A stretch of DNA of 40,635 nucleotides, from the IMG/VR virus record IMGVR_UViG_2541047850_000015; one strand, 5' to 3'. The notes beneath the pieces are model-generated. The model was not told the DNA's origin. It did no database searches and saw only the letters and a program-made list of their open reading frames with translations. Of this stretch, positions 229 to 32,961 are shown piece by piece (position 1 is the stretch's first letter; each line of letters begins with the position of its first letter). The translations under genes and the position numbers were made by a program. This DNA comes from a virus (lineage: Duplodnaviria; Heunggongvirae; Uroviricota; Caudoviricetes).

Positions 229-3174
229 TTAGTGCTTCCCTTCTATTAAGTCTAACCTAGCTTTTATTCTTTCTATTTCTCTGCGCTGCCATGCCGCCTC
301 GATATAGAATAAGAGATCAGGTCTGACCCCCCATCTAGATCCTGCTGGCGTTATTTCAACGCGCTCAATGATGTCTTCTATTACCATCACTGGATTATCA
401 TCCTCATCAACAATGATGCTCCCGTCATTATCAGTCAGCGGCATTTCCCTTTGGCCAGTAATGACGTCATCATATACTGCGGGATAATCGTCATAGCAAA
501 GAAAGGCATAGCGGCATGTTGTGCTTTCTTCTTCCATGAGTCCGTGAGAAATAAGAACATCACGAAGTTGCTGCGCGATTACACCATGATGTATCCTCGC
601 CCCTTCTTCCCCCTTTATAGCGACAGCGTTCAGCCATTTATAAGCGATATACCTGACGTCACCCCAGGCATCCAGCAATGCTTCGTCAGGAGAGACCGGC
701 TCTGTCTTTAATGTTCCGTCACTGGTAACCACAGGATTGGAGCCAAGATAAACTGTCGAGAACCTGTTTCCCGGACCACCAAGAGCATTTACATTATCAA
801 GATAAGGTTTAACATCTCCGTTCTCAAAAAGATGTTCGAGTGCGTTATATACCGCGCGACGTGGAGTACTGCTTCCGGAACCATGCAACGTTATCATTGC
901 ACCATCTGCTGAAGACGTTGTTTCACCGCCGCTAACGATTAATCTCTGAGCGGTAACATCATCAGACGGTACTTTCTTCGCAATAATGGCGTAATTACCC
1001 TCAAGTTTGACTTCCGCGCGAACTTGTCCTGATGTACCTGCATGGACAGTCAGTGACTGGACGGCAACATCATCTGTGAAATCAACGGGTACAGGAACCG
1101 TCCTCACGCCTGACGTCGACATAAAAGTAGGAAGCGTTCTGTTAGGAGTGGCTCCGTAGACAAAATCCCTTGAAACAAATTCTTCCTGTTTAATTTTCAC
1201 CCTGAAACAATACAAATCAGCCGGGTGACCATCGTGAACATAAGGATATTTTCTGTTGTTATCCCCTATGCTCCATGGGTTTAGAAAATCTTCCCCACCG
1301 AAAATGTAGTACAGCCAGTTGTCTTTGATACAAACTGAACCAACACCAACCGCAGAGTTAACTATTCCGCCCTGATAAATCTGATCAGTAACATTAACCC
1401 ACTCTACATTATCCAGACTCCACTCATTGACGTTAACTCTGGTCATAAATGTTCTTGGATAATTTCCTGCATAACGGTTATCAGGTTCTCCTCCTTCCCA
1501 CTCACCAAATGCGCGCTCACTGCCAAAAATAACCAGCTCATCGCCAACTTTGGCAAAAGGAAGGTTTGAGTGATGAACATTATTTGGGAAGCGAAGAGAA
1601 TTCCATGATGTACCTAAATCAGAGCTTCTGTGCAATGAACTACCGGGTTGAGTACTTAATGTCCCCCTGGTCGTCAGATACAGAATGCCATCATAATATT
1701 TTACACATGGCTCAGATGCATTCGCCTCATATTCTGCAGGTATGCGTCTGCGAACAAAGCTACCAGGAGAACCGAAAGCATCAGAGAAATAGAGTATCCC
1801 AAGCTCGCGTGGACCAATATCACCATTATGGTAGCCAACAGCAAAACTGTTATCGCTAATCGTCGCAAAACTGTGAATCTCAGTAACAGGAGTGCTTCCG
1901 TCAACAAAAGAAGGAATAGTTCCAAGACTGGTTTTTCTCCATGGTGACGAGTGAAATGATGTGCCAAAACTCCAGTATCTACCCTCGTTATTCTGATCCA
2001 CATCCTGGGTATTTTGCGTCGTAACTGTAAAGGTATTTTTATCAATAACAGTAGTCACCGTCATATTCCCGGTAACATCTGTAACACCAGAGTTTGAGAA
2101 GTTGACAAAATCACCAGCAAATAATCCGTGATCAGTAATGCGAATATAAGCGACTTGCTGATTTGCTGCTTTCGTTATACCACCATAAACGCGAAGGCTG
2201 CGACTCATTGGGCGATCCCACAACTCTGCAACCTGCAGTTTATTTCCTCTCACGGTCCGCGTCTCAATTACAGCAAAAAGGCGATTTCTGACAACCCCCA
2301 TACTCATGCAGTGATAGTTAACTGTGGGATAGTTTTCATGTAAATCTGTAAGCCATTCCGGCGTTGTCCAGGTCTTCCCGTCATCTCCTGAGCGAACCCA
2401 TGCAACATGGAGGTTATTTACACCATGGCGGTCTCCAGCCATAAAAGGCGCATAGATGACATTGTCATATACAAACGTTTTATCCTGCGTCCAGGCGTTG
2501 TACCACGGTGTATCTGTAATTTTAAATAACTCTCCCTGGATAAAATCTTCAGAAGCATAAAAAAGAGGCTGACCCGGTATTCTCTCAAATAAAAAACGAG
2601 CATTTTTAAATCGACTGACATCTGGAAGAGTTGATACTTTAAAAGTAAGCCCTCGCCCATCTATCTTTTCACCACCTGTTGCAACAGAAAGTAATTCTGA
2701 TAGAGCTGATGTATCATCATGAACACCATCACCAATAGCCCCCCAACCTCTTACATCATAACTGTCTCTCCATCTTGCTATCTGAAGTTTTGGGTATTTA
2801 TTCGCTCCATCTGGGTCTTCTAATTGCTGCCGTAGTTGATCTGGGTCATACTTCAGCACATTAGGAAAATAGAACTGCTGCGCACCATACGCATCATAAA
2901 CAGCCATAGAATGGCCTTGCACGGTAACGAATTTGGCAATCTGTCCGTTATATACAGGATATCCAGCAGCGTTAATGATGATTGGTTGAGAAACAGGAAC
3001 GTGAGAACCGTCTTCGTTCTCCACATAAGCCTGAATCTGGTTTTCAGGATTTACAGGGTCAGTATCAATTTTACCGATATAAATTTTGCCATTAGCTACG
3101 GCTTTAAAAGAACGCGCCATAGTGAAGAGTTGCGAAGGCATCGATACAATCACATTGGCTGTAATGTCTGTCAT
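229..3174 (-). CDS. Tailspike: P22 gp9-type N-terminal head-binding domain fused to an endo-N-acetylneuraminidase (endosialidase) domain with C-terminal intramolecular chaperone domain
   Basis: N-terminus [10 protein letters not shown]...[11 protein letters not shown]...VLKYDPDQ closely resembles P22 gp9 N-terminus; two Asp-box motifs ([16 protein letters not shown]) typical of sialidase beta-propellers; C-terminal about 150 aa resembles the self-cleaving chaperone domain of K1F/K5 tailspikes. Confidence 0.85.
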
Positions 3175-3296: not shown

Positions 3297-4220
3297 TTAA
3301 AGTTTTATTGAGTGGCACGCTCTATCACGTATCGCTGCGAATGAAGCTATCTCTTTAAGTGCCCAGCTTTGCTCAGCCATTAAATGGCGAAGTGCTTTTA
3401 GTTCAGCTCTTACTGCTGAAACGTCATACCCCGCTTTTGTCAGAATATTGATTAGTTTATACGCCGGACTGCATTCAACGAGTGCGCTGCGGTCAAGAGC
3501 AACAGTATCACCGCATTGCTGCCTGATAATGGCGTAAGGTGCATTTTCAGCAAACCATGAAATCGGGAAGTTAATATCCAGTTTTGGCGCTGGTAACTCT
3601 TCTTGTTTGCCAATGAACTCACCTTCAAGTGGAACTCGAGCTGCAAGTGACAGTGCTTCGGTGAACTGCTCCTCACTGATTTCTTTGTACGAACATCCAA
3701 AATGGGATTTCAGTGAGGACCACATGGTGATCATCGCCTTAGCCTGTTTTTCTTTTGGCAGAGACTGACCGCGACTCATGACGAGTTGTTTAATGGCTTC
3801 CTGCTGTTCAGTGGTGATTTTACCCGGCAACGCCTTTTTAGCTTTGCGTGGGTTAACTACATGACCTTTAGTCCAGTACTCGTATAGCACATCGTCACAC
3901 TCTTCCTGATACTGGATTACCTTGTCGCGGATTTCAGGACGGACTTTGTTTGGCTGAATGCTTGAAAGCCAAGCCGCAAACTTACGAAAGGCAAGGCATA
4001 TCATTAACTGTTTACCGCCAGCAGAAGGTATTTCGATTTCCGAAATACCTTTGACAAATCTCTGTTTTAATTTAACAAATTGAGCAGCCCAAACCATACC
4101 CATGCCTTCTACAACGGGTTTCATAGGAACGTAAGGTTCATTGTTAATGCTGACCAAAAAGAGATTTGTTCCGTGGAATGGAACGTTGATTGTATGTTCT
4201 GCAATTGCTACACTCGTCAT
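3297..4220 (-). CDS. ant: Antirepressor Ant (P22 Ant-like, AntA N-terminal domain plus KilAC-like C-terminal region)
   Basis: 307 aa, position downstream of arc in immI, size and organisation like P22 Ant (300 aa). Confidence 0.8.
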   Translation of the reverse strand: MTSVAIAEHTINVPFHGTNLFLVSINNEPYVPMKPVVEGMGMVWAAQFVKLKQRFVKGISEIEIPSAGGKQLMICLAFRKFAAWLSSIQPNKVRPEIRDKVIQYQEECDDVLYEYWTKGHVVNPRKAKKALPGKITTEQQEAIKQLVMSRGQSLPKEKQAKAMITMWSSLKSHFGCSYKEISEEQFTEALSLAARVPLEGEFIGKQEELPAPKLDINFPISWFAENAPYAIIRQQCGDTVALDRSALVECSPAYKLINILTKAGYDVSAVRAELKALRHLMAEQSWALKEIASFAAIRDRACHSIKL

Positions 4221-4283
4221 GTCGTTAATTCCTATGCGTGGTTTTACGATACCGAAGCCCTGACTGTTACCGCAGTTGGGGCT

Positions 4284-4505
4284 TCACTGTTTTTGTAAGT
4301 CACTGTAGCTATAAAGCCACTGACCACTCATTTTTGATTTGATTGACTCTACTGAATCACGGCAAGGAATGATTCCGCCTGACATCATTCTGATCTCCGT
4401 AAATTCACCACTCCTTATCGATTCAATGCCATCAATGTTAACTAAAGATTTACCTCTACCAAGTGCATTCTCATAGCCAATCTCATCAACCTCAATAAAC
4501 CTCAT
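4284..4505 (-). CDS. Hypothetical 73-aa protein inserted between arc and ant, start overlaps arc stop (ATGA)
   Basis: ORF in track; GAGGGG upstream; translational coupling to arc. No recognisable family. Confidence 0.45.
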   Translation of the reverse strand: MRFIEVDEIGYENALGRGKSLVNIDGIESIRSGEFTEIRMMSGGIIPCRDSVESIKSKMSGQWLYSYSDLQKQ

Positions 4506-4660
4506 ACCGTTATCCCCTCTCTCTTCAGGCTGTCCAACACTCGCTTGTAAATCTCAGAGTTAACAGATCGCCCGTTCTCTTCCGCCACCTTACGCACCAA
4601 ATCCAATACTTCTTTAGGCCACCGCAAATTGAACTGCGGCATTTTGCTCATTCCTTTCAT
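4502..4660 (-). CDS. arc: Arc repressor (ribbon-helix-helix)
   Basis: MKGMSKMPQFNLRWPKEVLDLVRKVAEENGRSVNSEIY... is near-identical to P22 Arc; start moved to internal ATG (about 4660) because upstream ORF-track extension would cover the operators. Confidence 0.92.
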   Translation of the reverse strand: MKGMSKMPQFNLRWPKEVLDLVRKVAEENGRSVNSEIYKRVLDSLKREGITV

Positions 4661-4674
4661 ATTTACCTCACAAT

Positions 4675-4723
4675 ATAGGTCCACCGTGGACCTATTGAGA
4701 ATATAGTAGAGTGCTTCTATCAT
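4675..4723. promoter_or_regulatory. immI control region: Mnt operator palindrome (about 4675-4695, TAGGTCCACCGTGGACCTA) and Arc operator (about 4703-4723, ATAGTAGAGTGCTTCTATCAT) with divergent Pant/Pmnt promoters
   Basis: Perfect 19-bp palindrome seen in sequence; second site matches the P22 arc operator as I remember it; located between divergent arc and mnt starts. Confidence 0.8.
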
Positions 4724-4750: not shown

Positions 4751-5005
4751 ATGGCTAGAAACGATCCGCACTTTAACTTCCGTATGCCTTTGGAAGTAAG
4801 AGAAAAATTGAAATTAAGAGCAGAGGCTAACGGAAGGTCAATGAACTCTGAGTTATTACAAATCGTTCAGGATGCTCTCTCAAAGCCATCACCGATTGCA
4901 GGCTATCGAGACGAAGCTGAACGCTTGGCTGATCAGCAAGCAGAGCAGTTCAAGGCCGTTGTGTTTGAGACACTTAAAAAGATTTATGGCAAGGATGATA
5001 AATAA
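4751..5005 (+). CDS. mnt: Mnt repressor
   Basis: MARNDPHFNFRMPLEVREKLKLRAEANGRSMNSELLQIVQDALSKPSP... is near-identical to P22 Mnt. Confidence 0.92.
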   Translation: MARNDPHFNFRMPLEVREKLKLRAEANGRSMNSELLQIVQDALSKPSPIAGYRDEAERLADQQAEQFKAVVFETLKKIYGKDDK

Positions 5006-5541
5006 TGCTGCACACAATTCATTTCTTATGCCCCGTTAACACTGCCACTGTTGGGCAACTTCAGAACCACTGTCTCACCGCATTATCTCAAGGCGCAACT
5101 GAATTAAATATCCATATATCAAGTCAGGGAGGGGAAACTGCCGCTGGCTTTACTGCGTATAACTTTCTTAAGTCACTCCCTGTTACCGTTAGAACTCACA
5201 ACATAAGCAATGTTGAATCCATAGCTAATATCGTTTTCCTGGCTGGCTCAGAACGTTTCGCAAACCCATTATCAAGATTCCTGTTACATCCTCTATTATG
5301 GTGCTTTGCCTCCCCAGCCGCCGACCATGCCAGATTGAGAGAGTACGGGAAATGCCTCGATAACGATCTTGATCGCTTCGTTGAGACGTTCAATATCGAC
5401 ATCGGAACCCATATTAGGTGGGCATCCCTGATAGCAGACTCGACCATTTTGGATGCTAACAAGGCTCTTGAGCATGGCATAATTAATTCCATAAAAACCG
5501 CAAGGCTGGCATCCAATCAGGCAAACTGGTGGGTTGTTTGA
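5005..5541 (+). CDS. ClpP-like serine protease-domain protein (178 aa), translationally coupled to mnt (TAATG overlap)
   Basis: Alignable by eye with ClpP: ISSQGGETAAGFTAY / VSTIC..S..A / RF..P.SR...H; candidate Ser-His-Asp triad positions retained (ESIAN, LLHPL, ADSTILDA). Not in the head module. Confidence 0.55.
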   Translation: MLHTIHFLCPVNTATVGQLQNHCLTALSQGATELNIHISSQGGETAAGFTAYNFLKSLPVTVRTHNISNVESIANIVFLAGSERFANPLSRFLLHPLLWCFASPAADHARLREYGKCLDNDLDRFVETFNIDIGTHIRWASLIADSTILDANKALEHGIINSIKTARLASNQANWWVV

Positions 5542-5566: not shown

Positions 5567-5597
5567 AAAAAACCCGCGATTAAGCGGGTTTGATTAG
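5567..5597. terminator. Bidirectional hairpin terminator between convergent ClpP-like gene and ORF6N gene (CCCGC-GATTAA-GCGGG flanked by A/T runs)
   Basis: Hairpin with T-rich tracts on both strands in the 75-nt convergent intergenic gap. Confidence 0.5.
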
Positions 5598-5616: not shown

Positions 5617-6474
5617 TTAAAAAAGTTTTCGAAGATCTACGCCATACACAGCAAGCCAAGCATCGCGAGGCCATGACTTAACTGAGCCAAAGCGTGGGTC
5701 GTTGACATCATGTGGGGTGACGTCATTCTCCCGGCACCACTTGCGAAGAGGCTGCCATTTGAATTTCTGCCCCAGCTTCTTTTCTACCGGGATAATGGCG
5801 GCGTAGTTCTTTCCTTCCCCTACCCGTTCAGCTAATTTGTTTTTGGCGCGGACGGCTGCTGATGCGGTAGCCATTGCTGTAGCTTCGCGTTTTGCTGCAA
5901 TCCACAACTTTTCTTTTACCGCTCTGTCGCGCTGTTGCTCAAGAAGCCGATTCTCTTTGACCTTTAGAAGTAAATCTTCCAGAGCCTGCTCGTATGTCTG
6001 CGGTAGGATGCTTTTTACCAAGGGACGGAAGTAAGCATTTTCCAACCGTTCGAAGAAAGACCATGCTTCGTCTGTATCGACAATTTTCGACATCCGCGCT
6101 GCGCCCTTCTCCGTCCACAAAACAATTGAACGAGCTTTGTTCGAAATTTGTGCGTGACTATTAGTCACTCGCAAATTCTTCAACTCTTGGCCTTTAATAG
6201 TGAAGATGTGAATTCCTTCAATGAAGCGTCCAGCATTGCGTGACAGGTTTTTCCGAATGTTAGCCTCATCCGTACCATAACCTGAAGCCAGCGTTTCAGT
6301 CGTAACAACACGTAAACCCTCCCATTCAATCACTGGAAGCGGCTGGGGATCGACATTTGGCTCATGAACTGCTAAATTTAATAAAGTCATTGGTTGGACC
6401 CTTATGACAAGTTTCAATGAAAGCCGGTAGCTCGTAACTGTCGGCTTTTCTTTTTGCACCGTCCTGTGCGTCAA
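5617..6474 (-). CDS. Antirepressor-like protein with ORF6N-type N-terminal domain
   Basis: Motif LPVIEWEGLRVVTTETLASGYGTDEANIRKNLSRNAGRFIEGIHIFTIKGQEL typical of ORF6N domain; track start is TTG, an alternative ATG lies about 6390. Confidence 0.6.
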   Translation of the reverse strand: MTHRTVQKEKPTVTSYRLSLKLVIRVQPMTLLNLAVHEPNVDPQPLPVIEWEGLRVVTTETLASGYGTDEANIRKNLSRNAGRFIEGIHIFTIKGQELKNLRVTNSHAQISNKARSIVLWTEKGAARMSKIVDTDEAWSFFERLENAYFRPLVKSILPQTYEQALEDLLLKVKENRLLEQQRDRAVKEKLWIAAKREATAMATASAAVRAKNKLAERVGEGKNYAAIIPVEKKLGQKFKWQPLRKWCRENDVTPHDVNDPRFGSVKSWPRDAWLAVYGVDLRKLF

Positions 6475-7206
6475 TCAGTGAATCCATTCCTCACCGCGAA
6501 GCATTGCCAACATTGGCTGCGCATGCTTCACGACAATATTGCTGTTATCCAGTTCCTGTACTTCACGAAGCAGGATCTTCTTGGTTTCCACAGTCATATA
6601 ACGAATGTCGTGGGCGATGTCGTATAGCATCCCTGCGTATTCTGACTTAGCCTGTTTCATTGCCGGGTAAAGTTGCTGGCTAACCCGCTGGCTCTTTTCC
6701 ATCCAGAGCTGGAGATAGCAAAGGCTGATTAACTCATCATCTGTGAACTGTTTGGCGATCGGTGAATCCGTGGCTTCACGATCCAAAATATCCAGCACCC
6801 AACGGCGGAACTCTTTGGCCTTGGGCGTAGAAGCAAACATCGCCACCAAGTGAGCGCCTCGGAGTGAGTAAACTCTGACCGATTTGTTACGTAAGCTATT
6901 GTTTATCCCGTTGACACTCATATTGAGGGTCAATGACATTGAGTCGGAAAACTCATCAGCATTACGGGCATAAATTTGGCTGATGGCATCAGTTTTTTTA
7001 TAGCCGAGAGCCTTAGCTAGTTCGGTGGAGGTAAACCAGATAGACCCGCCCTCTGTTACTGGGTTAAAGGTGAATCCTTGGAAGTTGTAATCTGATTTTG
7101 CTACAATATTCATATCGATATTTCCGTCGTAGGATTTGTTCGATACCGAAGCCTGACGGTCTAGCCACCGTTGGGCTTCAACGTTTTTAATGGATGATAA
7201 TTTCAC
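6475..7206 (-). CDS. Bro-N domain antirepressor-like protein (probable true start at ATG about 7113)
   Basis: FTSTELAKALGY...VRVYSLRGAHLVAMFASTPKAKEFRRWVLDIL matches Bro-N domain; track start is GTG at 7206 and would overlap the upstream small ORF. Confidence 0.6.
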   Translation of the reverse strand: MKLSSIKNVEAQRWLDRQASVSNKSYDGNIDMNIVAKSDYNFQGFTFNPVTEGGSIWFTSTELAKALGYKKTDAISQIYARNADEFSDSMSLTLNMSVNGINNSLRNKSVRVYSLRGAHLVAMFASTPKAKEFRRWVLDILDREATDSPIAKQFTDDELISLCYLQLWMEKSQRVSQQLYPAMKQAKSEYAGMLYDIAHDIRYMTVETKKILLREVQELDNSNIVVKHAQPMLAMLRGEEWIH

Positions 7207-7360
7207 CTTTCTTCTCCATATCCATGACCTTAGCCATAAAGAAATCGATCATCCCCTGAGTCGAGCGGTAGCTTTTAGCTGCGTTACTTTCCAAAAACTC
7301 ACGCACTTCAGCACTTGGGCGGTAGGAGATAGGCTTGATATCTTTTTTCTTCTGTTCCAT
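7187..7360 (-). CDS. Small 57-aa protein, predicted ribbon-helix-helix-like regulator (first gene of the antirepressor operon)
   Basis: Hand-translated MEQKKKDIKPISYRPSAEVREFLESNAAKSY...; GAGGTG RBS 5 nt upstream of ATG; strand-helix-helix pattern by eye. Below ORF-track size cut-off. Confidence 0.4.
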   Translation of the reverse strand: MEQKKKDIKPISYRPSAEVREFLESNAAKSYRSTQGMIDFFMAKVMDMEKKGEIIIH

Positions 7361-7457
7361 TATTCACCTCATGTAGTTTTGTTATTCAATTGCTCAATCT
7401 TCAACATTAGGTTAGTACCAGACTAATATTGAGTCAATGATTTTTTAAGGTGCAAAT
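7361..7457. promoter_or_regulatory. Divergent promoter/operator region of accessory switch; imperfect inverted repeat CAATTGCTCAAT ... TATTGAGTCAATG
   Basis: 97-bp gap between divergent starts; inverted repeat seen by eye. Confidence 0.35.
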
Positions 7458-8318
7458 ATGAGTTTTGATGATTCTTTTTCTAAACGAGTTGCCATAGCGC
7501 GCAACTCCATCGGTTTGACTCAATCCGAGCTTGCTAAGAAAGTAGGCGTGGTATCCAGACAGATCGCTGCTTACGAGGGCGGGGAAGCCAAGCCAAGAGA
7601 AAAGGCACTTCAAAACCTTGCGGCTGCATTGGGAACTACCACTGAATGGCTTACGCAAGGGAAAGGAGATGGCCCTGACGTTAGCAGTGTCAAGAGAACT
7701 GTTACTGTGCGCGAGATTCCTGTGCTAACACACGTACAGGCAAGATTTGAATCGCTAGATGATTTACTAAAGACTGCTGCTATAAAGGACTTTATTCCAG
7801 CCCCTCCTGAAGCCAATGAATACTGTTTTGCCGTTGAAATACAAGGAGACTCCATGTCTTCCGGTGATGGGATTAGCTTTCCTCCTGGAACAATCGTAAC
7901 TTTCGATTCATCGCTAGAGGCTGTTTCTGGTGACTTTGTGATGTGTGTGCTGAATGATGATTCTGAGGCTACATTTAAGCAGCTTATACTGGATCAGCGC
8001 CAAATCTACCTTAAGCCACTTAACCCTTTATACCCTATGTTCCAACCTGATTTTATCGAGGTTGTTGGCGTGGCTATTCATTCTCAGTTCCGAATAAAGA
8101 GGGAAAAACTTATCTCTCCAATGCCGCATAGCGAAGTAGAGAAACTGGTTGAAGAAGCACACAAGGTTAGCCAAGATTTTTGGTCAAATGCAAAATTTGA
8201 CAAGAATACACCCTTTGACGAACGTCTTAAGCGACTAGATGAAATTGCTGAGCGCCTTGAGAAATTTGCTAACTACAGCCTTTCACAGGCCCGTTATAAA
8301 CACTCACCAGACAAGTAA
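7458..8318 (+). CDS. cI/LexA-like repressor: N-terminal HTH (XRE) plus S24 peptidase domain with about 75-aa C-terminal helical extension
   Basis: HTH segment GLTQSELAKKVGVVSRQIAAYEGG; S24 motifs GDSM and FKQL...KPLNP; AAGGTG RBS. Confidence 0.7.
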   Translation: MSFDDSFSKRVAIARNSIGLTQSELAKKVGVVSRQIAAYEGGEAKPREKALQNLAAALGTTTEWLTQGKGDGPDVSSVKRTVTVREIPVLTHVQARFESLDDLLKTAAIKDFIPAPPEANEYCFAVEIQGDSMSSGDGISFPPGTIVTFDSSLEAVSGDFVMCVLNDDSEATFKQLILDQRQIYLKPLNPLYPMFQPDFIEVVGVAIHSQFRIKREKLISPMPHSEVEKLVEEAHKVSQDFWSNAKFDKNTPFDERLKRLDEIAERLEKFANYSLSQARYKHSPDK

Positions 8319-8402: not shown

Positions 8403-8753
8403 GTGAATACTCAGTCTGTCATCATGGTTTTCCTTGGGCTGATTGTCGCAAAACTATATCCAGACTGGTGGAAAGGGGCATTAGCTACTGTCGCCATCTA
8501 TTTGCTTTTATCCATCGTTAAGCGATCACTCGCTGAGACCGTAAATCAAGCAAAACGTTTCTCATTTAAGAGTTTAATAAACTATGTTACTGGGCTTATT
8601 TTTTGCCTTTCAATTCTGATCGCTTCGGCTTTTTTGCCCGTATCAATAGCTAATTTTTTTGGCGCACCATATGAGGTAGGTTATCTATTCTCTGTTTCCT
8701 GTCTTGCCATTGCTCTTCTTTCCCTGTGGACGAGATCAAAGAATAAAAATTAG
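8403..8753 (+). CDS. Small integral membrane protein (about 4 predicted TM helices), GTG start with AAGGAGG RBS
   Basis: Four hydrophobic stretches of about 20 aa; lysogen-direction strand, convergent with gp16 homologue; position equivalent to P22 sieA. Confidence 0.5.
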   Translation: MNTQSVIMVFLGLIVAKLYPDWWKGALATVAIYLLLSIVKRSLAETVNQAKRFSFKSLINYVTGLIFCLSILIASAFLPVSIANFFGAPYEVGYLFSVSCLAIALLSLWTRSKNKN

Positions 8754-32190: not shown

Positions 32191-32307
32191 ATGCCCTCCA
32201 TAGTAACCATGAAACAATAATACGATATGTACTTTTGGAATGCAAACAAAAAATACATCTTGTGCATGGATGGTTTTAGTACAGAGCGTAATAATAAGGA
32301 TATGAAA
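32191..32307. promoter_or_regulatory. OR region with divergent pR/pRM promoters and operators (individual operator sites not resolved)
   Basis: 117-bp AT-rich gap between divergent cro and cI starts. Confidence 0.6.
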
Positions 32308-32961
32308 ATGAAATGGTATGAACTGGCTAGATCCAGAATGAAAGAACTCGGCATAACTCAAGAGAAGTTAGCTGAAGAGCTTGGTATGACGCAGGGTGGA
32401 ATTGGTCACTGGTTGCGCGGATCTCGTCATCCATCTCTTGACGAGATTGGTGTGGTGTTTAAATACCTTGGTATTGATAACGTCTCATTCAACCACGACG
32501 GTACATTTTCACCTGTTGGCGAATACTCATCTGCCCCGTTAAAAAAACAATATGAGTACCCTGTTTTTTCTCATGTTCAGGCCGGGATGTTCTCGCCTGA
32601 GCTTAGAACCTTTACCAAAGGCGATGCGGAGAGATGGGTCAGCACAACCAAAAAAGCCAGTGATTGTGCGTTTTGGCTTGAAGTTGAAGGTAATTCCATG
32701 ACCGCACCAACAGGATCCAAGCCAAGCTTTCCTGACGGGATGTTAATTCTCGTTGACCCTGAGCAGACTGTTGAGCCAGGTGATTTCTGCATAGCCAGAC
32801 TTGGTGGTGACGAGTTTACCTTCAAGAAACTGATCAGGGATAGCGGTCAGGTGTTCCTACAACCACTAAACCCGCAATATCCAATGATCCCATGCAATGA
32901 TAGCTGTTCCGTAGTAGGGAAAGTTATCGCCAGCCAGTGGCCTGAAGAGACATTTAGTTAA
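32308..32961 (+). CDS. cI: Prophage repressor cI (P22 C2-like, HTH plus S24 autopeptidase domain)
   Basis: C-terminal domain [13 protein letters not shown]...[28 protein letters not shown] resembles P22 C2; start chosen at second ATG (MKWYEL) with AAGGA spacing; track start 32227 is probably too long. Confidence 0.88.

Follow-up and report, generated by a model that had tools for sequence, protein, structure and literature searches.

A HTH-S24 repressor-like gene and its divergent operon as a probable second immI-type antirepressor cassette in a P22-like prophage of Escherichia coli

What does a cI/LexA-type repressor gene do when it stands among the late genes of a P22-like prophage, and is it a sensor of DNA damage? 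The question is raised by positions 5617-8318 of IMG/VR record IMGVR_UViG_2541047850_000015, a stretch of 40,635 nucleotides that was analyzed as a whole (the window) and is 100% identical to a prophage of E. coli O16:H6 CU37RT-2 located next to a tRNA-Arg gene and intS. The prophage carries P22-type coat, ejection, and tailspike genes and is P22-like. An initial annotation had described this block as a helix-turn-helix (HTH) plus S24 protein with a C-terminal helical extension of ~75 amino acids, arranged divergently across 97 bp from an operon of a ribbon-helix-helix (RHH)-like, a Bro-N, and an ORF6N gene. With an immC and an immI region elsewhere in the window, the block would be a third circuit of the repressor/antirepressor type in one prophage, and it was suggested to be an SOS-sensing module or a damage-triggered exclusion switch. 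We confirmed the arrangement by Pfam for the HTH-S24, Bro-N, and ORF6N proteins, by the predicted fold for the small protein, and by AlphaFold2 helices of low to moderate confidence for the extension, and both other immunity regions were found. The proposed dependence on DNA damage fared differently. We consider it probable that the block is a second self-contained immI-type antirepressor cassette, which would be silent in the lysogen under the HTH-S24 protein, fire on infection of a naive or heteroimmune cell, and be damped by an Arc-like protein and antisense RNAs.

The block is flanked by ejection-protein genes (from 8771, - strand) on one side and by a canonical immI region and the tailspike gene on the other. 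This is the "ant moron" position, defined as the interval from the gene 16-type ejection-protein gene to the tailspike gene (PMC2629481). The ant moron of P22-like phages is hypervariable, with ten types in sixteen genomes; its turnover is fast, frequently with degraded genes, and certain ant morons have no arc and are suspected of other control (PMC2629481). The canonical immI copy lies 3 kb from the block and contains mnt (4751-5005), arc (4502-4723), sar (4222-4288; Rfam sar, 77.7 bits), and ant (P22_AR_N; 3297-4220). The block was found to share with P22 immI (mnt/Pmnt-Pant/arc/sar/ant) the position between ejection-protein and tailspike genes, a maintenance-repressor gene facing the operon, a predicted strong promoter directed leftward, a small first gene of predicted RHH type, a predicted sar-type antisense RNA two bases from the start of the next gene, and antirepressor-type cargo. 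Judged by sequence, it is homologous to the P22 immI circuit and a paralogue of it within the prophage.

All four open reading frames (ORFs) of the block are intact. The HTH-S24 gene (7458-8318, + strand) encodes 286 amino acids with Pfam matches to HTH_3 (E 6.7e-10) and Peptidase_S24 (E 3.8e-16). It is separated by a control region of exactly 97 bp (7361-7457) from an operon on the - strand, whose first gene, in the Arc position, encodes the 57-amino-acid RHH-like protein (7187-7360). The second gene (6475-7113, within ORF 6475-7206) is the first cargo gene, with Bro-N and P22_AR_C domains in Pfam and matches to PHROG anti-repressor Ant families. The third (5617-6390, within ORF 5617-6474) is the second cargo gene and encodes a 257-amino-acid ORF6N protein (Pfam ORF6N, E 9.2e-20; phrog_4936, E 8e-100), with the start at ATG 6390 as given in RefSeq. 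For the Bro gene, RefSeq gives GTG 7206 (243 amino acids) as the start. ATG 7113 (212 amino acids) is most likely the start instead, because of the sar-like geometry described below and because homologues in other cassettes begin with MNIVAKS or MNIVARS. The operon is closed by a hairpin resembling an intrinsic terminator (5567-5589, - strand; ACCCGC-TTAATC-GCGGGT, then TTTTT), which was read from the sequence and was not listed by the promoter/terminator scan.

To place the block among its relatives, we examined about 24 loci, from E. coli A10, Lonsdalea, Yersinia, Klebsiella, Providencia, Morganella, and Salmonella, from 15 IMG/VR contigs, and from phage JEP4. All of them contain an HTH-S24 gene, a spacing of 97-107 bp, a divergent small gene, a gap of ~73 nt with a sar-like element, and one or two antirepressor-type genes. 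The cargo domains were P22_AR_N, Bro-N with or without P22_AR_C, KilA-N with or without ANT, ORF6N, pRha with ANT, and ANT alone. The cassettes were located at the ant moron in P22-like podoviruses, between the tail-chaperone and tape-measure genes in siphoviruses, and among baseplate genes in myoviruses. The cassette of E. coli A10 and that of the isolated Lederbergvirus JEP4 are likewise situated at the ant moron, where no arc gene is annotated; the A10 cargo is a P22-type ant. The full block was present in 6 of 5426 complete E. coli genomes, with 2 more carrying a variant with different cargo, and a member of the HTH-S24 family was found in only 2 of 50,697 phage records. Salmonella phage SPN3UB carries Bro and ORF6N cargo (77% nucleotide identity) with a sar-like RNA under a Mnt-type RHH repressor. 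The repressor slot therefore appears to be exchangeable, and the HTH-S24 protein would act in the role of Mnt. By these comparisons, the cassette is widespread and portable and not peculiar to this prophage.

The HTH-S24 protein is very probably the repressor of the operon, because all related loci that were examined have it facing this small gene and cargo of the antirepressor type. This invariable coupling supports the counting of the block as a third circuit of the repressor/antirepressor type. Full-text searches of the literature found no description of a cassette with a cI-like repressor that lacks Ala-Gly, an RHH-like protein of phrog_10182, one or more sar-like RNAs, and shuffled cargo. 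The immI region, the ant moron, and antirepressor cross-talk are already known; what was not described is a cassette combining them with a cI-like repressor. The nearest statement found was that on ant morons without arc, which are suspected of other control (PMC2629481).

In the control region we inferred a Pant-like promoter (7409-7437, - strand) with a -35 hexamer TTGACT (7437-7432), a 17-bp spacer, and a -10 hexamer TAACCT (7414-7409). Eighteen cassettes, aligned with this element as the anchor, have in common TTGAC(A/T), a 17-bp spacer, and a hexamer of the TAnnnT type. A weak candidate for a rightward promoter of the S24 gene was seen by eye (TCAACA 7401-7406, 17-bp spacer, TAATAT 7424-7429); as it was absent from the scan output, we place no weight on it. 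The imperfect inverted repeat that the initial annotation placed in this region is present, with 16-nt arms at 7386-7401 and 7425-7440 that are 75% complementary and bracket the leftward -10 and start site. Taken alone in the window it is not above chance, as 56 of 200 shuffles reach its score, and we dropped it as operator evidence by itself. The repeat is meaningful only because an equivalent one recurs around the same promoter in related cassettes. Across 14 distinct cassettes, the 7-mer that overlaps the -35 is followed, 38-49 nt farther downstream, by an inverted partner, with 18 mismatches in total against 34.3 expected, in a comparison that was post hoc and is silent on which protein binds. 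The arms also co-vary in part from cassette to cassette (ACTCAT with ATGAGT; ACACA with TGTG). The pattern fits candidate operator half-sites, which would make up one repressor site on each side of the -10 and the start of transcription.

The sar-like antisense RNA unit occupies 7078-7192 (+ strand). Its Psar-like promoter was reported by the promoter scan at 7078-7107 as an extended -10 promoter (TTGGAA-18-TACAAT). The predicted RNA (7114-7192) is ~79 nt long and has two hairpins, with a terminator hairpin at 7148-7179 and a T-run at the end. Rfam sar (RF00262) matches 7115-7183 (+ strand) over the full model length with 40.0 bits (E 1.2e-5), which is 3 bits under the Rfam gathering score of 43. 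The RNA lies between the 57-amino-acid gene and the Bro gene, is antisense to the Bro ribosome-binding site, and abuts the start codon (7113-7111), so that, as in immI, an antisense RNA runs across the ribosome-binding site of the gene after the arc-like gene. Its start is two bases from the Bro ATG at 7113, and the offset of the canonical sar from the ant ATG is identical.

We built our own covariance model from five sar-like sequences. The window element scores 99 bits with this model, which detects a sar-like element in all examined cassettes. Among 17 distinct sequences, 90.9% of cells pair and compensatory two-sided changes occur in 15 of 20 pairs. The covariation score, computed on an alignment fitted to the covariance model, was 0.526, compared with 0.225 in shuffles (none of 500 attained 0.526) and no more than 0.129 with the partners slid. 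Independent single-sequence folds reproduce both hairpins. RNAalifold found no structure when the sar-like regions were simply aligned with MAFFT, because indels put the stems out of register. In the Psar-like promoter, TGnTACAAT falls on codons 2-5 of cargo genes that are otherwise unrelated, so that cargo seems to be swapped on the downstream side of this element.

A second antisense RNA over the ORF6N start is probable. The candidate (6350-6455, + strand) has a promoter-like sequence at 6350-6378, a hairpin at 6420-6448, and a T-run to 6455; its fold has z = -2.4 in the window, and it matched no family in the Rfam scans. Five cassettes in which Bro is joined to ORF6N keep the antisense hairpin and T-run at the ORF6N start, and their stems have changed in a compensatory way. 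Conservation of the promoter-like site, hairpin, and T-run, with compensatory changes, was noted for SPN3UB, Providencia, Morganella, and an IMG/VR cassette. In one IMG/VR cassette (L020), we observed a weak second sar-like match at 2444-2525 (+ strand; 16.8 bits, E 0.74) ahead of the second cargo gene, a P22_AR_N ant. An individual cargo gene may move together with an antisense RNA of its own.

The 57-amino-acid protein matches phrog_10182 (E 8.6e-34), a family of 108 clusters that are all from Enterobacterales where an organism is named and of which a few are called Arc family by NCBI or UniRef. The family is conserved down to ~25% identity. Below the Pfam threshold, RHH_5 was found for 7 of 14 members and Arc for 4 of 14, along with ParD-like matches. 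When compared with the Arc of the window by hhalign, residues 6-38 aligned on Arc 5-37 (E 1.2e-4, probability 55%). The AlphaFold2 model (predicted local distance difference test score, pLDDT, 86) consists of an extended N-terminus followed by two helices, and its best Foldseek matches are nearly all RHH proteins (CopA, AtaR, Arc, and CopG), with weak E-values of 0.4-5. On the basis of these comparisons we accept a predicted RHH fold and an Arc-like role for the protein, short of assigning it to the Arc family itself.

The HTH-S24 protein belongs to a family of "LexA family" proteins of 255-302 amino acids from Enterobacterales, conserved down to ~40% identity. Its AlphaFold2 model (mean pLDDT 82.7) has the N-terminal DNA-binding domain (HTH, 1-67) and the C-terminal S24 fold (86-210) of self-cleaving repressors. 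The HTH domain is 434-like (E 8.8e-9), and the closest solved structures are those of lambda cI (3bdn, 2hnf, and 8gmu), whose C-terminal domains are 38-40% identical. Among the structure matches was also 1jhf, the deposited G85D mutant of LexA, which is non-cleavable. The C-terminal extension (~215-286) was modelled as helices 224-243 and 253-281, with low to moderate confidence, and contains a conserved amphipathic helix (LDERLKRLDEIAERLEKF). No Pfam family matched the extension, and just 5 family fragments were found among 1.84 billion representatives; by these searches the tail is family-specific, and it may have a role in oligomerization. Tails in the family often end in KKPT or in basic residues. 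The linker residues 68-88 (GKGDGPDVSSVKRTVTVREIPVL) are unusually conserved, with G68, G70, P73, T81, and P88 invariant in 91 sequences.

Whether this protein could sense DNA damage depends on its cleavage site. The catalytic dyad is intact, with Ser132 (GDSM) and Lys174 (FKQ) aligned with lambda GNSM and FKK. At the scissile bond, lambda cI Ala111-Gly112 aligns with Ala95-Arg96 (HVQAR on lambda HVQAG), and neither Ala-Gly nor Cys-Gly is present. Only 3 of the 91 proteins in the family have a Gly at P1', while shorter outgroup repressors retain Ala-Gly. The short tail-less cassette repressors (JEP4, L021, L022, and L027) have GEAM or GDAM, in which the catalytic Ser is replaced by Ala, and keep the full cassette. 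The segment right after the former cleavage site is highly variable in the family. No LexA box (CTGT-N8-ACAG, at most 1 mismatch) was found between 3506 and 15801, and control of the block by host LexA was therefore rejected.

These observations bear on the proposal of an SOS switch, in which activated RecA would stimulate self-cleavage of the S24 protein after DNA damage, the operon would be derepressed, and the antirepressors would induce this or co-resident prophages. The lambda-cI-like fold and the intact dyad, largely conserved in the family, agree with it, and SOS-controlled antirepressors have precedent, though via host LexA (PMC3121763). Against it, the lambda and P22 repressors cleave at Ala-Gly by means of a Ser/Lys dyad (PMC3121763). 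In the block, Ala-Arg has replaced this bond, which makes a RecA-stimulated self-cleaving SOS sensor unlikely. The loss of the Ser in repressors with the whole architecture and the non-cleavable state of LexA G85D point the same way, and the primary repressor of the prophage, the cI-like protein of immC (32227-32961, + strand), is already of the directly cleavable type, with a lambda-cI-type C-terminal domain and the canonical cleavage site HVQAGMF. We thus regard canonical RecA-stimulated self-cleavage of the HTH-S24 protein, and with it the SOS-sensing module of the initial annotation, as unlikely, and the damage-triggered exclusion switch suggested alongside it gained no specific support. 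A further proposal, which we put forward with considerable doubt, is that the family represents a distinct repressor class that has kept an active Ser/Lys protease, abandoned Ala-Gly and the coupling to RecA, and gained the helical tail. Such a repressor would be inactivated by non-canonical cleavage, or by tail-dependent proteolysis or sequestration, on a signal other than DNA damage. If true, this class would provide an SOS-independent trigger that frees a shuffled antirepressor arsenal in polylysogens.

Most likely, then, the HTH-S24 protein is a stable lysogenic repressor of an anti-immunity operon that acts at the time of infection. We infer the binding partners and sites, the timing of expression, the targets of the cargo, and the oligomeric state in the following account. 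The strong Pant-like leftward promoter would drive the three genes for the Arc-like RHH, Bro-N/P22_AR_C, and ORF6N proteins. In the lysogen, the HTH-S24 protein, standing in Mnt's place, would bind sites overlapping the -35 and just downstream of the start and keep the operon off, probably as a higher oligomer held by the S24 domain and the C-terminal amphipathic helix. On infection of a cell without this repressor, the operon would fire briefly and then be shut off by the Arc-like protein. The sar-like RNA, with its promoter within the first Bro codons, would cover the Bro ribosome-binding site and throttle Bro translation, and the second antisense RNA probably would throttle ORF6N likewise. 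The antirepressor-type proteins would inactivate the repressors of resident prophages, resulting in anti-immunity or prophage cross-talk. The cargo may thereby widen the range of resident repressors that are neutralized, complementing the canonical P22-type Ant encoded 3 kb away. The putative ability of the cargo to bind and inactivate c2/cI-type repressors is suggested by likeness at the level of domains and families (P22_AR_C, Bro-N, ORF6N, and PHROG anti-repressor families).

Several points weigh against this account. The leftward promoter is absent from the output of the consensus promoter scan of the window and is recognizable by comparison only, and its -10 in the window, TAACCT, is weak. 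The operator assignment rests on a pattern noticed post hoc. The 57-amino-acid protein had no Pfam match at threshold, and no RHH or Arc model reached the cut-off. By the curated Rfam cut-off alone, the sar-like match narrowly fails. Bro-N and ORF6N proteins appear to have been shown only rarely to be antirepressors. In addition, most of the 91 family members keep the dyad, 87 of them the Ser and 81 the Lys, which argues that some proteolytic activity is still selected and that cleavage may occur at a non-canonical site.

The scarcity of demonstrated antirepressors also leaves room for a different role of the cargo. The Bro-N and ORF6N proteins could be growth inhibitors or DNA-binding regulators that are silenced until a trigger and then give abortive infection or exclusion. 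Overexpressed Bro/KilA-type proteins can inhibit growth (PMC5944126), and it is mostly through annotation that Bro-N and ORF6N proteins are assigned an antirepressor function. Yet the same chassis drives genuine P22_AR_N Ant homologues in many cassettes and is homologous to immI, and no trigger-sensing feature was found in the block, which was not scanned against defence-system profiles. We consider a toxic or exclusion module very unlikely. The rapid turnover of the ant moron, where degraded genes are frequent (PMC2629481), and the presence of the full block in just 6 of the complete E. coli genomes would agree with an inert passenger that recombination left behind in the hypervariable moron and that has no function today. 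Here the four ORFs are intact and the promoter, antisense RNAs, and terminator are preserved. The compensatory RNA changes and the conservation of the S24 and small-protein families to ~40% and ~25% identity, respectively, indicate purifying selection, and an inert passenger is hardly credible.

The reading as an immI-type cassette still leaves clear differences from the known systems. In P22 immI, the repressor is Mnt, an RHH tetramer, while that of the block is a 286-amino-acid HTH-S24 lambda-cI-like protein; the block has no divergent Mnt repressor with an RHH domain and C-terminal tetramerization helix, and the Mnt of the window belongs to the neighboring canonical module. The Arc-like protein comes from another family (phrog_10182) than P22 Arc, and the cargo is Bro-N/P22_AR_C and ORF6N in place of P22 Ant. 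Unlike P22 immI, the block has a probable second antisense RNA, and its cassette also occurs in the tail-gene regions of siphoviruses and myoviruses. The gp19-gp22 region of SPN3UB, known from annotation and with no experimental study found, has the same cargo, sar-like RNA, 57-amino-acid Arc-like first gene, and a divergent repressor. The SPN3UB repressor is a Mnt-like RHH protein of 108 amino acids, and no sequence similarity was detected between its Arc-like protein and that of the block.

The HTH-S24 protein shares the HTH N-terminal domain, the S24 C-terminal fold, and the Ser/Lys dyad with lambda cI, 434 cI, and P22 c2. It differs from these in the Ala-Arg at the scissile bond, the conserved linker, and the helical tail of ~70 amino acids, and it would control an accessory operon rather than lytic promoters. 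The antirepressors of Gifsy-1/3, Fels-2 and 186 Tum, and N15 AntC are likewise trans-acting prophage antirepressors silenced by an S24-family repressor, with potential for cross-talk (PMC3121763). Those systems use host LexA at a LexA box, whereas the block has a phage-encoded repressor and no LexA box.

Other features were observed in the surrounding regions. The immC repressor is a mosaic, with a C-terminal domain near-identical to that of lambda cI and a different N-terminal HTH domain. In the canonical immI, an ORF of 73 amino acids (4284-4505, - strand; phrog_11805, function unknown) lies between arc and sar/ant. To our knowledge, P22 has no gene at this place. A ClpP-like gene (5005-5541, + strand; 178 amino acids; Pfam CLP_protease, E 2.2e-11) is located in the ant moron, outside the head genes, and its relatives are named "head maturation protease" by PHROGs and in one phage record. 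Its ATG overlaps the mnt stop codon (ATGA), so the lysogen probably expresses it together with mnt. Over the final 142 bases of this gene and the 34 bases that follow, identity is 97-98% in several E. coli phages, phiv205-1 and EC.P3 among them. Directly downstream of the S24 gene and on the same strand, we found a gene for a predicted membrane protein of 116 amino acids (8403-8753, + strand), with no Pfam and no PHROG match. This is the place of sieA in P22. The ~36 bp ahead of this gene match the DNA that precedes genes for a "superinfection exclusion protein" in phages of Salmonella.

The finding suggests that the logic of P22 immI, combining a maintenance repressor and a small RHH protein for shut-off with an antisense RNA and an antirepressor, is a portable chassis and not an oddity of P22. 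Its repressor slot appears to take either an RHH or an HTH-S24 protein, and its cargo slot at least six antirepressor-type domain families, and the chassis is widely distributed in Enterobacterales, where podo-, sipho-, and myovirus prophages carry it in their tail and late regions. This would give function-level annotation to phrog_10182 ("hypothetical") and to a family of "LexA family" proteins, and it adds sar-like RNAs that had been unannotated. It also indicates that a "LexA family" annotation need not imply SOS responsiveness. A prophage with two such circuits and a cleavable cI would be a convenient system for studying antirepressor action in polylysogeny.

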